This document shows, one piece after another, positions 56,026-62,031 of a stretch of DNA of 64,000 nucleotides (position 1 is the stretch's first letter; the number at the start of each line of letters is the position of its first letter). The notes beneath the pieces were generated by a model, which was not told the DNA's origin, searched no databases, and was given only the letters and a program-made list of their open reading frames with translations. A program made the translations under genes and the position numbers. The DNA is from an uncultured delta proteobacterium (GTDB taxonomy: Bacteria > Myxococcota_A > Polyangia > Fen-1088). Location: contig CAVYGB010000004.1 in assembly GCA_963767925.1 (NCBI GenBank), forward strand, positions 84,371 to 148,370, written 5' to 3'.

Positions 56026-56346
56026 CCGCTCGGAAGCGTACTGCGGGGGTACCCGCCCCAAGACCCCCAGATGACGCTGGCGCTGCCTACTGCGTGGGGG
56101 GCGTCGTCACGAAAGACCGAGCGCAATACTGTTCCCGCGCGGGCTGGCAGATGGCGATCCGCCCCGGCTCGGTGATGGGCATCGTGCGCGGTGAGCGTGA
56201 GGTGTCGCTCGCGTGATGGACATCGGAGAGCCGGGACGGCCTTTTTCAGATTGGTGATGGGTCAGGCGCCGGTGTCGCCGTTGGTGTGTAACCGTCCGAC
56301 CGGGGACGTCTTTCGGCGCCCATTGCGGTGATGCAGTCTCACGTGC

Positions 56347-56688
56347 ATGAGACATCGCGAAGAGAGACGGCGGTTCTGGTCGGCCTTGATGGCGCGTTTC
56401 GAGGGCAGCGGGAAGTCGCGGAAGGCATTCGCCGCCGAGGCAGGCGTCGGCCTCGCCATCTTCCAGTACTGGCTGTACAAGCTCCGACGCGAGCGGCAGC
56501 CGACGGCCGTTCGCAAGTTTCCCGTTTCGGAGGTGCGCCTCGTGCCGGTGACCGTGCGAGCGCAGCCCGCGGCCCCGGCGCTGATCGAGCTCCGTGTCGC
56601 TGGCGTGCGGCTGCGCGTGCCTGTGGGCGTCGACCCTGGATACGTCGCGCGACTCTCGGCCGCGCTCCGCGAGGCGCGTGCGTGCTGA
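56347..56688 (+). CDS. tnpA: IS66 accessory protein TnpA
   Basis: FW......F..SGKS...F, FQYW; position in element. Confidence 0.85.
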   Translation: MRHREERRRFWSALMARFEGSGKSRKAFAAEAGVGLAIFQYWLYKLRRERQPTAVRKFPVSEVRLVPVTVRAQPAAPALIELRVAGVRLRVPVGVDPGYVARLSAALREARAC

Positions 56689-57056
56689 CACTTCCGCCGA
56701 GCGTCCGGATCTATCTCGCGGTCGGCCAGGTGGACATGCGACGCGGCCACGACGGATTGGCGGCGATCGTACGGGGTCAGTGGAAGCTGGACCTGTACGG
56801 CGGACATCTCTTCGTCTTCCTCGGGCGCCGGGCCGATCGTTGCAAAATCTTGTTCTGGGACCGCGGCGGATCCGTCCTGTACTACAAGCGTCTCGAGCGC
56901 GGGCGATTCCGCTTGCCGCGCGTTCCTTCCGAGGCGACATCTGTGATCATCGACGCCACCGAGCTCGCCATGCTGCTCGACGGAATCGACGTCGTCGCCG
57001 TCAAGCGGCCGCGCAAGTGGGAGCCGCCAAAGATCGCAGCCGCGTCGCCGACGTAG
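56682..57056 (+). CDS. tnpB: IS66 accessory protein TnpB
   Basis: VDMRRGHDGL, LFVFLGRR, KILFWD, KRLERGRF. Confidence 0.92.
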   Translation: MLTLPPSVRIYLAVGQVDMRRGHDGLAAIVRGQWKLDLYGGHLFVFLGRRADRCKILFWDRGGSVLYYKRLERGRFRLPRVPSEATSVIIDATELAMLLDGIDVVAVKRPRKWEPPKIAAASPT

Positions 57057-57145: not shown

Positions 57146-58805
57146 TTGATGGGGCCGCCGCCGGACGACCATGACTGCGGGTGGAAGACTCGCGCCACTG
57201 ACCTCGAAGCGAAGCTCGAAGAGACCGCCGCGAAGTTCGAGGAATTGGCCGCCAAGATGGCCGCCATGGAGCGTCGGATTCTCGGGCCGAAGAGCGAGAA
57301 GCTGCCTCCAATCGATCGGGAAGTCCGCAAAGAGCGGCCTGCGGATCCCGCGGCGACGCAGTCCACCAGGCGCAAGAACGCCGAGCTACGCGCCACACGC
57401 GTCGTGAGCGAGGACGTACCCCACAAGGTGCCGGACGCGGAGCGGGCTTGCCCCAAGTGCGACGGCCGCGATCTCCGTCCTGTCGGCGCCGGCAAGATCT
57501 CCGCGGTGCTCGACTACGTGCCGGGATACTTCCGCCGCCGCCAGCACATTCGCGAGACCCTGGCCTGCGCGTGCGGCGAGCACATCGTGACGGCGCCCGG
57601 GCCCGACCATTCCGTGGAGGGCGCGCGCTACGGGGACAGCTTCCGCGCATTCGTCGTCACTTCCAAGTGCGCCGACGCCATCCCGCTTTACCGGCAGGCC
57701 AAACAGATGAGCCGCCTCGGGATCCCGATCTCGCGCAGCACCCTGACGGATCTCTTTCACCAAGCTGCTGGCCAGCTCGCGCCACTGGCGAGGCGGCTTC
57801 TCGCGCTGGTGGCCGCCGCCGAGGTCGTGCAGGCGGACGAGACCTCGCTGAAGATGCAGAAGCCGAACAAACGCGGCTTCGTCTGGACGTTCCTCGCGGA
57901 GAAGCTAATCGCATATGTCTTCTCCAGCAGTCGCAGCGGCGAGACGCCCTCGACGGTGCTCGCAGCAGAGCCCCCAACTCACCGGGCTTGGTGCACCCCG
58001 CGGCCTGACGGAGAACCCCTCGCTTGTACTCGGCGGTGAACTTCCGCCGGGTTGCCTTCGACACGACCTCGGTATCATGTGCTAACACGCTGCTCATCTC
58101 TACCGTTCCTGCCTCGCCCTGGGACATTAAATTCGGCTTCGGCGCCGTCTCAGGTCACGTTGGCGAAGGGGGGCGAGCACCGGGACACTCGTGGTCGACA
58201 TGTACACTGGCTACAACGAGGTCACGAGCACGGGCGGACGCACGCGGGCCGCGTGTCTCGCGCACGCACGCCGTCGCTTCTTCGATGCCCTGTCGTACGC
58301 GCCCGAGGCCAGGAGCGCCCTCGAATTGATCCGCGACGTGTACGTAGTCGAGCACGACGCAAAGGCCGACGGCATCGCGCGCACCGACGAACACACGCGG
58401 CTGCGCAGAGCACGGTCGCGGCCGATCATGGAGCGCCTGCACTGCTGGCTCATCGAGCGAAAGGACCAGTACGCGCCGAAGAGCCCTATGGCGAGCGCCG
58501 TGCGGTACGCCCTCAACAGCTGGGACGAGCTCACCCGCTTCCTCGACGACGCCCGCATCCCGCCCGACAACAACCGGAGCGAATCCGCACTTCGCGTGGT
58601 CGCTCTTGGCCGGAAGAACTTCTTGTTCGTCGGGCACGAGGAAGCCGGGGACAACATCGCCGGCCTCTACTCCCTCACCGCTACCTGCGAAGCGAACGGA
58701 GTCGAGCCCATCGCGTACCTGACCGACGTCCTCGGCCGCGTGGGCTCCCATCCCGCTGCCGCCCTCGACGAGTTGCTGCCCCACAAGTGGCGCCGATCGG
58801 GCTGA
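57146..58805 (+). pseudogene. tnpC: IS66 transposase TnpC interrupted by a ~210-bp insert
   Basis: KSEK, CPKC, PLYRQ, ADET; resumes VVDMY, CLAHARRRF, DNNRSE. Confidence 0.9.
57963..58172 (-). mobile_element. Truncated left end of an IS3-type element
   Basis: RRKFTAEYKRGVLRQAAGCTKPGELGALLR OrfA-like start; boundaries approximate. Confidence 0.7.
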
Positions 58806-58880
58806 CGGCAGCCTCCGCCTCACGCTACCCGAGTACTCCGCAGCCGCGCTGCCGTCACGACGTCGTGGGTCGGACGGTTA

Positions 58881-60808
58881 GTGCGCCGGGATAAACCGGC
58901 TGGAAGGAGAGAATGAAGGAGTCTCACATCGAAGGAGTAGCGACCCACGATGACCCTGAGTCATGCGCCACCGCCCGCGAGGGCGAGGGTGAAGCGTTGA
59001 CAGGGGTACGCACGGGCGCGGTATTGAGCCGCGAAATCAGACACTCCGGGACGCCGACGCCGTTAACCGAGGCGGAAGGCAACACGTCCCCCGGGCGCTA
59101 CCGCGAGCCCGAGGGCGGTCCCGCGCGGTCGGAGACCCGCAGCACGTGCAGAACCTTCCAGCACGAGAACCGGGAGGTCCCTGCGTCGCTCGCCACGGAT
59201 GGCGTGGCGGGACGCGTCGGCAAGGCCGATGGCCGAACACCGGCGATGTACGGCGCAGGGAAGTCGGACAGGTCCGTAGTACCAATGAAGGCGTCGAACA
59301 AGGCCGGGAAACCGGTCGCGGAGACGTCGGAGGGAAGGGGCCTGGCCAAGGGAAACATGGACGAGCAAAACGCGTCCCGGACACAGAGCCGGACCAGCGC
59401 GCTCAGTGCGCTCGACCGTGTACGACAAGCAGCAAAACGAGAGAAGGGAATGCAGTTCACTGCGCTCCTCCACCACATCGACATCGACCGTCTGCGAACG
59501 GCATTTCACGCCCTCAAAAAGGACGCGGCGCCTGGAGTGGACGGTCTGACGTGGGAGAAGTACGCGGGCGGAGTCGAGGAGAATATCCGAGACCTGCACG
59601 TGCGACTTCACCAGGGGGCGTACCGGGCGAAGCCATCAAGGAGAGCGTACATCCCGAAAACCGACGGTCGGAAACGGCCGCTGGGCATCGCCGCGCTGGA
59701 GGACAAAATCGTTCAGCGTGCGATGGTCGAGGTGCTCAACGCCATCTATGAAACGGACTTTCTCGGGTTCTCCTACGGATTCCGGCCTGGGCGCAGTCAG
59801 CACAATGCGCTGGACGCGCTCGCAGTCGGAATCCTGCGGAAGAAGGTGAACTGGGTGCTCGATGCGGACATTCGTGGATTCTTCGACGCCATCGACCACG
59901 AGTGGCTGACGAAATTCGTCGAGCATCGGGTGGGGGACGGACGGGTCCTGCGGCTCATCCAGAAATGGTTGAGGGCAGGTGTGATGGAAGACGGAAAGTG
60001 GACGCAGAGCGAGGTTGGTTCGCCCCAAGGAGCGACAGTGTCGCCCCTGCTGGCGAATATCTACTTGCACTACGTTCTCGATCTCTGGGTCCAGCAGTGG
60101 AGAACTCGGCACGCGTGCGGCGACGTGATCGTCGTTCGTTATGCCGATGACTTCATTGTAGGGTTCCAGCATCGTCGAGACGCTGAGCGGTTCCTGGTCG
60201 AACTGCGCGAGAGATTCGCGAAGTTCAAACTGGAGCTTCACCCTGACAAGACGCGCCTCATCGCGTTCGGGAGGTTCGCCCTCCTAGACCGGCAGAGGAA
60301 CGGACTGCCAGGCCAACCGGAGACCTTCAACTTCCTGGGCTTTACCCACATCAGTGGGCGGACCAAGAAAGGGGCCTTCGTGCTCAAGCGCCAAACGATG
60401 CGCCAGAGATTGGCGGCCAAGCTGCATCACGTATCCACCGAGCTGCAGCGACGCCGACATCAACCGCCACGGGAACAAGGCCGCTGGCTCCATTCCGTCG
60501 TGCGCGGGCATCTCGCGTACTACGGAGTCTCAACCAACGGCCCGACCCTGGAGTCCTTCCGAACGCAGGTCATCAAGAGCTGGCACCGGTCGCTTCGTCG
60601 TCGAGGTGACCGTCGCCGGCTCACCTGGCAACGGATGGGACGCCTCATCACAAGGTGGATACCGTCTGTTCGCCTCGTACATCCCTGGCCTCAGCGCCGC
60701 TTTGACGTCAGAACCCAAGGCAAGAGCCCAGTGCGGTAGTGCCGCACGCTGGGATCTGCGCGGGGGGCGGCCCGAGCCTTCACAGGCAAGGGCCGTCCCT
60801 ACCGCGAC
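58881..60808 (+). mobile_element. Group II intron
   Basis: 5' GTGCG; domain V gagcccagtgcg..cgcacgctgggatc at 60724-60756; domain VI ending ccctaccgcgAC; RT ORF inside. Confidence 0.95.
59246..60739 (+). CDS. ltrA: Group II intron reverse transcriptase/maturase lacking an endonuclease domain
   Basis: APGVDG, RPLGI, SYGFRPGR, PQG, RYADD, FNFLGF; no HNH; start 59246 or 59357. Confidence 0.93.
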   Translation: MYGAGKSDRSVVPMKASNKAGKPVAETSEGRGLAKGNMDEQNASRTQSRTSALSALDRVRQAAKREKGMQFTALLHHIDIDRLRTAFHALKKDAAPGVDGLTWEKYAGGVEENIRDLHVRLHQGAYRAKPSRRAYIPKTDGRKRPLGIAALEDKIVQRAMVEVLNAIYETDFLGFSYGFRPGRSQHNALDALAVGILRKKVNWVLDADIRGFFDAIDHEWLTKFVEHRVGDGRVLRLIQKWLRAGVMEDGKWTQSEVGSPQGATVSPLLANIYLHYVLDLWVQQWRTRHACGDVIVVRYADDFIVGFQHRRDAERFLVELRERFAKFKLELHPDKTRLIAFGRFALLDRQRNGLPGQPETFNFLGFTHISGRTKKGAFVLKRQTMRQRLAAKLHHVSTELQRRRHQPPREQGRWLHSVVRGHLAYYGVSTNGPTLESFRTQVIKSWHRSLRRRGDRRRLTWQRMGRLITRWIPSVRLVHPWPQRRFDVRTQGKSPVR

Positions 60809-60950
60809 CGGCTCAACGCCATCGGCTGGCCCTTTCGGGCACTCGGCGGGACCCGGGTGTTGGCCGCCTCGAACAGCTGTGGGCGACGCCGCCGGCGCAA
60901 CCCTCTTGCAACATCGCACCCATCCGTACCGCCGGGCCCTCGGAGTCTTA

Positions 60951-61883
60951 GAGCCTATCCCAGTAGACCGCACGCGCGCCACGTGATGATTCCGCACGCG
61001 AGGTGAAGCATTGCGAAAAAGGTGTCCTCGCGCTCTTCTCCCAGCGGACCAGGATCCGGCGGAAGCGATTCATCCAACTGTGAGTCCGTTCGACGACCCA
61101 ACGACGAGCGCGAAACCCGGCGCCCTTCTTGATGGCCTTCGCCTCCTCTCCGCGACACCGAATGTGCAGGGTGAATCCGAATGCGGTACCAACTCCCGGA
61201 CCTCGTCGTAGTCGTAGCCCTTGTCGAGGCACAGGCCCTGCCGTCTCGTCGCGCGTTGGTCGGGGCCGCGGCACGGGGACGCTGTCGACCGTCTCAGCGA
61301 ACAGCTTGAAGTCGTTCCGATTTGCGCCGTCGACCGCGAGGCCGAGGGGATTCCCGCCGCGTCCGTCAACAGGCTTCGCTTGGTCCCGCCCTTGGCGCGG
61401 TCGGTTGGGTTTGGCCCGATTTTTTTCCCCGCCCAGCGGCGCCTTCGTCATCGCCCCGTCCATCGAAAGCCAACTCCAGTCGATTCCCTTCACGCGGTCG
61501 TAGGCGAGTAACGCGCGACGCCAGAACTCGTGGAACACCCCTCCCTCCGTCCACTCCAGAAAGCGGCGATGGGCTGACGAGCTTGAACAGAGCCCCGTCG
61601 CGTTCAGAGCGTTCCACGGGCATCCGGTGCGGAGCACGAAGAGGATCGCGTTCATCGCGTCGCGATCAGGCACGCGCGGGTTGTGGCAGCCGAGCGGGTG
61701 CTGCGGCCGCGACGGGAGCAGCGGCTCCATCTTTGCCCACAGCTCGTCCGGCAGGCGCCAGCGGTCGTCCTTGGTGATCAGGCCCATGCGCCCGCGATCG
61801 CCCCATTCTGCAACGAGCGCCAATTTTCTGCTGTTTTCCCTCCGCTCAGGAAAATTGACCGACCGCCCTACTGGGATAGGCTC
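60951..61883 (-). mobile_element. IS5-family IS (split transposase)
   Basis: Perfect 16-bp IR gagcctatcccagtag; TTA duplication; LRTGCPW, DKGYD, RWVVER; GGGGAAAAAAA slippery site near 61420-61430. Confidence 0.93.
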
Positions 61884-62031
61884 TTAGGGTCGTCAGTTTT
61901 GAGCGTCCGCTAAATCGACCGAGCGATGGTGGGCCGGAGGGACTGCTTCCGCTAATAGCTCTGAGCGCACCAGCGGTCCTCGGACGAGTACAAACAGGCA
62001 GCGGAGCGCAGCCCTGACAACCCACCGGTGG

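Follow-up and report, generated by a model that had tools for sequence, protein, structure and literature searches.

A group II intron lies in the end of an IS66-family insertion sequence (IS) within a 64,000-nucleotide stretch of DNA (the window) on contig CAVYGB010000004.1 of an uncultured myxococcotal delta proteobacterium (assembly GCA_963767925.1). IS66-family elements have terminal inverted repeats (IRs) that begin GTAA and produce an 8-bp target duplication (ISfinder descriptions). The IS66 copy in the window comprises two IRs, a tnpA-like first open reading frame (ORF), tnpB and a tnpC gene in two parts (Table 1). A Pfam search of the tnpA-like ORF gave no match even at E 0.01. The right IR reads GGTCGGACGGTTA, is interrupted by the intron and resumes with C60809, which completes GGTCGGACGGTTAC. 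Joined in this way it matches the left IR, GTAACCGTCCGACC, exactly as its reverse complement, and with C60809 included the IRs are perfect over 14 bp. The intron (58881-60808) therefore splits the right IR between its last two bases, as had been noticed in the original prediction, a reading of this DNA from its letters alone. The left IR, read on the minus strand, is a perfect and unoccupied copy of the intron target; the presence of the target there had been noticed as well. On contig C8, the right end of a related IS66 without an intron reads ...GGACGGCTAC.

Table 1. Features of the IS66 element and of the intron in its right inverted repeat (positions in the window).
Feature	Position	Strand	Basis or remark
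Left IR, GTAACCGTCCGACC	56288..56301	+	Exact reverse complement of GGTCGGACGGTTAC
tnpA-like first ORF	56347..56688	+	tblastn homologue adjoining the intron at locus L025
tnpB (IS66 Orf2-like)	56685..57056	+	TnpB_IS66 PF05717, 120.5 bits
tnpC, N-terminal part	57146..57960	+	Pfam zf-IS66 and start of DDE_Tnp_IS66
204-bp dispersed repeat inside tnpC	57961..58164	.	Copies on other contigs
tnpC, C-terminal part	58191..58805	+	Pfam DDE_Tnp_IS66 and IS66_C
Right IR minus last base (5' exon)	58867..58880	+	IBS1 CGGTTA 58875-58880; tentative IBS2 GTCGGA 58869-58874
Group II intron, 1,928 nt, GUGCG to GAC	58881..60808	+	RF02005 match, boundaries, conserved ends
Domain I core	58918..59138	+	Rfam RF02005 (group-II-D1D4-6), whole model matched
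Tentative EBS2 UCAGAC	59037..59042	+	Inside internal loop 59034-59046; weak family signal
EBS1 hairpin, 4-bp stem and 9-nt loop	59058..59074	+	EBS1 UAACCG 59064-59069; RF02005 alignment, covariation
EBS3 (G), partner C60809	59131..59131	+	31/32 rows pair, 5 pair types
Intron-encoded protein, 484 aa	59285..60739	+	Pfam RVT_1; YADD at 60140-60151
Domain V	60724..60757	+	AGC triad, odd-sized apical loop UAGUG, no tetraloop; RF00029 match and fold
Domain VI	60758..60808	+	Bulged UA, candidate branch-point A at 60801; fold
Right-IR terminal C (IBS3, first 3'-exon base)	60809..60809	+	IR match and pairing

The boundaries of the intron were defined from both ends. The 5' end, GTGCG at 58881, abuts ggtcggacggtta (58868-58880), and domain I matched RF02005 with a score of 174.1 bits (E 1e-50) against a gathering score of 49. 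At the other end, the RF00029 model of domains V and VI matched 60722-60808 (35.7 bits, E 8.8e-5 in a 2.3-kb search), with the end of the model falling at 60808 (...CCGCGAC); the 3' end CCCTACCGCGAC is common to the relatives described below. The apex of domain V, GCGG-UAGUG-CCGC, has a loop of 3 nt or 5 nt depending on a U.G closing pair. Domain VI folds at -39.4 kcal/mol (z -5.8), with its bulged UA 7 nt upstream of the 3' splice site. The ORF of 484 aa is uninterrupted and its YADD motif is intact; the start codon at 59285 is supported by relatives that align from about residue 2. RVT_1 (residues 123-354, 133 bits) is the sole Pfam match of this protein, a reverse transcriptase encoded in domain IV, and no endonuclease domain (D/En, HNH) was found by Pfam in the roughly 130 residues that follow it, in agreement with the original prediction of an endonuclease-less intron protein.

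Comparative data were used to assess pairing between the intron and its exons. Relatives of the intron protein are coded at 77 loci (53-68% identity in the best segment); the intron ends at these loci were placed with nhmmer, which gave 85 matches to the 5' end and 77 to the 3' end, and the 5' regions were then aligned. In the RF02005 alignment, a stem (59058-59061/59071-59074) closes the 9-nt loop GUUAACCGA, which holds TAACCG. This exon-binding site 1 (EBS1) pairs at 6/6 positions with CGGUUA, the intron-binding site 1 (IBS1) of the window. The hairpin alone is thermodynamically unremarkable (z -0.8), and the support for it is comparative. Across 49 distinct combinations of exon and EBS1 loop, 229 of 294 cells at exon positions -1 to -6 can pair, as compared to a mean of 126 and a maximum of 155 when the exons are dealt at random (2,000 shuffles). 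The unpaired cells come mostly from rows in which the 5' boundary is misaligned by 1-2 bases or from head-to-tail intron arrays.

Pairing between EBS3 and IBS3 was assessed in rows with letters on both sides (2 rows are gapped at this column and 15 have no mapped 3' end). Pairs were present in 31 of these 32 rows (21 G-C, 4 A-U, 4 C-G, 1 U-A and 1 G.U, with a mismatch at L089 only), counts that are not independent events because the rows are mutually related, the four C-G rows belonging to one intron family. The stem-loop at 59058-59074 and G59131 had been proposed as EBS1 and as a candidate EBS3, and these results bear out both assignments.

The exons of the closest relatives end CGCTTA, CGGTTA or CGGATA, and C is the first base beyond the intron. 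In each instance EBS1 is matched to the IR variant, reading TAAGCG for CGCTTA, TAACCG for CGGTTA and TATCCG for CGGATA. Ten copies lie at IS66-type IR tips, in seven genomes from three phyla (Myxococcota, Planctomycetota and Gammaproteobacteria). Left IRs are occupied at L033, L068, L069, L025, L035 and L030, and right IRs in the window and at L027, L029 and L022. The host elements were recognised by a Pfam scan of upstream ORFs of at least 90 codons at 14 loci, which covered 150 of 152 ORFs. Opposite-strand tnpA, tnpB and tnpC end beside the intron at L033, L068 and L069, and a same-strand tnpC is found at L027, L029 and L022. The neighbour of L025 is a tblastn match to the first ORF of the window element (45% over 40 aa, E 4.5e-7), and the same genome has a second copy behind a near-identical IR exon. 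L035 adjoins a TnpA-like helix-turn-helix ORF only, and L030 a 222-nt IS66 remnant that is 98% identical to the IS66 end of L033. Three other loci (L028, L044 and L034) have IR-like exons, with no IS66 genes within 2.1 kb and no IR side assigned. In the IS66 relatives at L027 and L029, tnpC and the right IR are separated by an additional ORF (about 155-180 codons) that has no Pfam match.

Target duplications were found around two of these elements. In the case of L033, GACGTATC stands directly before the far IR (GTAACCGACCGG...) of a 2,941-bp IS66, and the identical eight bases follow the post-intron C. An 8-bp duplication, GTTTGAAC, likewise surrounds the IS66 (2,868 bp) and intron of L069. 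Because these duplications flank IS66 and intron together, the base after the intron is the terminus of the IS. At L022, from Planctomycetota, the 19 pre-intron bases and the following C together give a perfect reverse complement of the far IR, GTATCCGCTGCACGAGCCCC; no target duplication was present despite these perfect 20-bp IRs. Target duplications were also not found in the flanking stretches examined for L068 and L027. A candidate for L025 was rejected as probably due to chance, its match lying 1,582 nt upstream with no IR after it. In three phyla, then, the intron lies between the penultimate and the last base of an IS66-family IR. The far IR of L033 ends CGGTTA and mismatches the EBS1 of its own intron (TAAGCG), which may explain why a single IR of this IS66 is occupied.

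By inspection, the first flank base beyond the IS (+2) is G in most copies at IS66 tips, being G in the window and at L002 (described below), L033, L068, L069, L027, L029, L035, L034 and L044. This could reflect a preference of the intron protein or an insertion-site preference of IS66.

The state of the intron within its own 9.3-Mb genome was also assessed. The 12-mer GTCGGACGGTTA occurs four times, as compared to no occurrences of the reversed control, and all four are IS66-type IR ends. A second, 5'-truncated copy (L002, C13:125421-126579) is 100% identical over 1,159 nt and is missing intron positions 1-769. It directly adjoins the end of a gene for a 400-aa rve-type (integrase core) transposase, and its 3' exon starts CGGC like that of the window copy. 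The complete identity of this second copy argues for recent activity. A 75%-identical sister intron (L003, C1:203839-205764) occupies a non-IS site, behind an exon ending in a duplicated GTGGTA, and its EBS1, UACCAU, is fitted to that exon. At the six intron and target sites of the genome, local GC skew was noisy and had no consistent sign for leading or lagging orientation.

Other samples add weak evidence, drawn from contigs only. One soil-metagenome contig has an empty related end, ...GGTTA followed by CGGCGCACC, and another places the 5' end of the same intron behind an IR-like exon that differs. In two metagenome-assembled genomes (MAGs), a 10-mer pattern of the target gave mostly chance matches, fewer than the reversed-pattern control. 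Sites accompanied by IS66 genes numbered four in one MAG (three occupied) and one in the other (occupied), numbers too small for occupancy rates.

The IS66 copy in the window was already defective apart from the intron. Its tnpC is broken by a 204-bp repeat, and the intron therefore did not kill this element. Copies of the repeat, which resembles a miniature inverted-repeat transposable element or a solo IS end, were found on contigs C6 (99%), C13 (100%), C8 (94% and 79%) and C9 (82%); the copy on C13 is located 1.5 kb upstream of L002. An 85%-identical IS66 copy on C9 is without the repeat in its tnpC. Downstream of C60809, 138 bp of single-copy DNA are followed by an IS5-family element at 60947-61887. 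This element is 941 bp long, has 20-bp IRs (CTTAGAGCCTATCCCAGTAG) and a minus-strand transposase ORF with DUF4096 and DDE_Tnp_1, and is represented by copies on C6 (97% identical) and C8 (74%).

The distribution of the IS66-tip habit was examined in a tree of 49 distinct protein rows (IQ-TREE), from which identical proteins and ORFs shorter than 440 aa had been dropped, L033, L068, L028 and L029 among them. All IS66-tip introns in the tree fall in one group of 15 rows (support 90/87), and none of the other 34 rows is in an IS66 end. Within this group, evidence of IS66 accompanies the window, L025, L022, L035, L069, L030 and L027, and L044 and L034 have IR-like exons only. The remaining rows (L003, L036, L038, L045, L023 and L040) have unrelated exons with a matching EBS1. 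L003 is sister to the IS66-tip intron L022 of Planctomycetota (100/99), yet is in a non-IS site. Metagenome contigs were scanned in an exon-blind manner with a 17-nt conserved intron motif, which gave at least 120 stretches, 80 of them examined as loci.

Other targets and arrangements were encountered among the relatives. One Acidobacteriota MAG has 13 copies of a related intron (L045-L057) in a repeated target conserved on both sides (...CGGACCGCTTG / CGCCGCAAG...), and their 5' end is non-canonical and seemingly one base longer (GAUACG). On an Acidobacteriota chromosome, L062 and L066 form head-to-tail arrays in which 5' ends stand directly after 3' ends; three units 881 nt apart, which would be ORF-less derivatives, precede full-length copies of about 2,006 nt. 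One head-to-tail junction was also seen at L060 and L061. A sub-lineage made up of L070, L076, L078, L084 and L075, together with metagenome loci L100, L121, L122, L133 and L145, has the EBS1 GGAGG. Its 5' exons carry CAT a few bases before a final CCTCC or CTCCT, the introns being inserted in antisense orientation at Shine-Dalgarno and start-codon regions.

These data make it very probable that the window contains a mobile group II intron of the RF02005 type that is apparently intact, IIB-like and endonuclease-less, and whose ribonucleoprotein would recognise the outer tip of IS66-family IRs. The original prediction described the intron as programmed to home into the IS66 IR, and this is supported by the closest relatives, which occupy the same IR position with a covarying EBS1. 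It also suggested that homologues of the intron protein be gathered to see whether their 5' exons are IS66 IRs with covarying EBS1. Relatives of this kind were found; some sisters, however, lie elsewhere (L003, L036 and L040), with EBS1 retargeted to match. The refuting conditions named in the original prediction, sister introns in unrelated targets and a TAACCG loop that is not EBS1 in the folded structure, were thus examined and did not overturn the idea.

Several observations weigh against the recognition of IS66 tips by this intron or limit its reach. The tentative EBS2, UCAGAC, pairs with GUCGGA (-12 to -7) at only 5/6 positions, with an internal A/G mismatch, and the window intron has no contiguous EBS2/IBS2 helix of at least 5 bp. 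The best EBS2 helix in the family has a mean of 4.15, a modest excess over the shuffle mean of 3.60 and maximum of 3.92 (300 shuffles). The Rfam score of domains V and VI, 35.7 bits, is below the RF00029 gathering score of 40. The genome has only one full-length copy of the intron, and three perfect targets are empty (the left IR of the window IS66, the left IR on C9 and a solo IR on C2). No 8-bp target duplication is present at the window copy (GTTGGTGT on the left, GGCTCAAC on the right), so rearrangement may have altered the DNA on its right. Of the 15 rows that make up the closest protein group, six occupy unrelated targets, and the branching within the group does not separate one origin (ancestral, with losses) from several. 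IS66-like exons were found in four of the 80 metagenome loci among the matches listed (L117, L120, L136 and L155), two of which have upstream IS66 protein matches. Given the unrelated targets in the closest group and the few IS66-like exons in metagenomes, the habit is a trait of a sub-lineage and not of the class.

The empty targets and the missing duplication would also fit an insertion that was due to chance or ectopic, with the true homing site elsewhere and the IS66 end merely similar to it, and the closest copy in the same genome, L003, is indeed outside any IS. However, L003 carries a different EBS1 that fits its own exon, and it would be hard for an accident to account for ten copies at the same IS66-end position in seven genomes and three phyla, with compensatory changes in EBS1 and two duplication-flanked examples (L033 and L069). 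We give such an accident next to no credence. Those same 8-bp duplications around the whole of IS66 and intron are what composite transposition would leave, and the intron could in principle be a passenger that moves with IS66, its recurrence resulting from IS transposition and not from repeated homing. This is very unlikely, since different IS66 elements carry the same intron, some in the left IR and others in the right, occupied IS66 copies within one MAG differ (TnpC of L033 and L068 are 75% identical over 224 aa, TnpA 72%), protein relatedness does not track the host IS, and 1.9 kb separates the single terminal base from the part of the IR to which the transposase binds.

An alternative that deserves somewhat more weight, although we still consider it unlikely, is that the lineage homes to IS66 tips and the window copy is a fossil that has lost its mobility in the present genome. 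The single full copy, the 5'-truncated one and the three perfect targets left empty, in surroundings that are a graveyard of ISs, are consistent with this. The intact ORF with YADD, the conserved domains V and VI and the complete identity of the truncated copy over 1,159 nt speak against it. Empty targets are, moreover, to be anticipated to some extent, as endonuclease-less introns are expected to use targets in one replication-fork orientation only (available text of PMC4615759).

The preferred reading is an apparently intact intron that homes to IS66 tips, and a mechanism can be proposed for it. EBS1 UAACCG would pair with the six IR bases preceding the terminal one (CGGUUA) and EBS3, G59131, with the terminal C of the IR; more internal IR bases are probably read by the protein and through a weaker EBS2 contact. 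As the IS contributes a single base to the 3' exon, the target is independent of where the IS is located. Both IRs of each matching IS66 copy would be potential sites. That the insertion is at the tip is parsimoniously explained by the outermost IR bases being the most conserved part of the IS66 ends seen here. By analogy with RmInt1 and RmInt2, the RNA would reverse-splice into single-stranded DNA at replication forks; because the intron protein is without an endonuclease, the nascent lagging strand is the likely primer for cDNA synthesis, as in those introns. The same analogy predicts that each locus offers one usable orientation, and the empty left IR would be in keeping with this.

For the host element, insertion would change the IS end from ...TTAC to ...TTAG and displace the true terminal base by 1.9 kb, which should impair processing of that end by the DDE transposase. 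The intron may in this way immobilise IS66, a step that the original prediction thought probable and that is pure inference. In the window copy any such effect is moot because tnpC is broken.

A further, quite improbable idea is that this lineage uses a nick made by the IS66 transposase in place of its missing endonuclease, so that homing would be coupled to IS66 transposition. If IS66 uses a copy-out pathway, strand attack beside the IR would leave a 3'-OH on the flank. This 3'-OH would be on the target-complementary strand, one base downstream of the insertion point and pointing into the IS, a geometry suited to priming reverse transcription of RNA reverse-spliced between TTA and C. The lineage would then be a dedicated parasite of active IS66, capping and so disabling the end it used. 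The insertion site at +1, the use of both IRs and the lack of a flanking-sequence requirement are compatible with this idea.

Published systems were compared on the basis of the available text of the sources cited. The original prediction left it uncertain whether such targeting had been described, and in its principle it has. All RmInt2 copies in Sinorhizobium meliloti GR4 lie in IRs of ISRm17 (Martinez-Rodriguez et al. 2014, PMC4615759), and according to those authors targeting of IRs gives twice as many sites, one of which is always on the lagging-strand template. A review argues that such introns control or block IS spread (PMC5894124). One RmInt2 locus was compared with the window intron at the level of RNA, protein and host IS. 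The two are alike in that the same intron is found in left and right IRs and that the EBS are complementary to the IR, although in the present genome only the right IR is occupied; EBS2 pairing of RmInt2 is likewise reported to tolerate a mismatch (PMC4615759). They differ in most other respects. RmInt2 belongs to class D and its RNA matches RF01999, whereas the window intron matches RF02005; the proteins are 33% identical, and Pfam GIIM is found in that of RmInt2 and not in that of the window. Membership of the window intron in class D (RmInt1/RmInt2-like) was rejected on these three grounds. The ISRm17 transposase is of the DDE_Tnp_1/DUF772 type, in contrast to the IS66 host in the window. 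RmInt2 inserts at an internal position of the IR, flanked on either side by IS sequence and with A as IBS3, whereas the window intron is at the extreme tip. The minimal RmInt2 target reaches +7 (PMC4615759), and in the window only +1 belongs to the IS.

Two other endonuclease-less introns reside in ISs. RmInt1 is found in ISRm2011-2 (IS630 family) and, unlike the window intron, is of class D with a target inside transposase coding sequence. Sr.md.I1 is in an ORF annotated as an IS66 transposase (available text of PMC4615759) and is also of class D, and not at an IR tip. With respect to ribozyme type, the IIE and IIF introns (classes E and F) have small IIB-like ribozymes, endonuclease-less proteins and a non-tetraloop domain V apex, and their EBS2 covaries yet is dispensable for splicing (Nagy et al. 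2013, PMC3753933). Introns of myxobacteria and Solibacter are among those of class F and its related groups (Toro and Martinez-Abarca 2013, PMC3552965). The available text of PMC3753933 and PMC3552965 does not mention that class E/F introns prefer IS66 ends. Features of the IIE/IIF type are a domain V apical loop of 5 nt in place of 4 nt and an alpha' at a stem-loop terminus in DId3. The odd-sized domain V loop and the endonuclease-less protein of the window intron fit the description of this type, to which the intron may belong. Group IIC introns, which recognise a DNA stem-loop and short IBS1/3 without EBS2, are a different structural class. Their IIC-attC members at integron attC sites (mentioned in PMC7923331) resemble the present case as another intron lineage specialised on a mobile-element recombination site. 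Targeting of IS66 tips was not found described in the open literature, including the available text of PMC4615759 and 10.1101/2024.01.22.576618; subscription journals and the Zimmerly intron database were outside the scope of this search. The principle is thus already known from RmInt2, and the window represents an independent lineage, in another IS family and at the extreme tip of the IR.

These introns provide a second, independent case of group II introns that specialise on transposon IRs, here at the exact point of transposase cleavage. The occurrence of the habit in Myxococcota, Planctomycetota and Gammaproteobacteria, with EBS1 tracking the IR variants, documents how a few base changes have retargeted these introns in nature. 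For annotation, IS66 ends that seem to be missing their last base, or copies that are 1.9 kb too long, may hide introns of this kind. Intron-capped ends could be used to probe the terminal requirements of the IS66 transposase. Should the insertion disable the IS end, IS66, a widespread family with poorly known transposition chemistry, would have natural suppressors in these introns.

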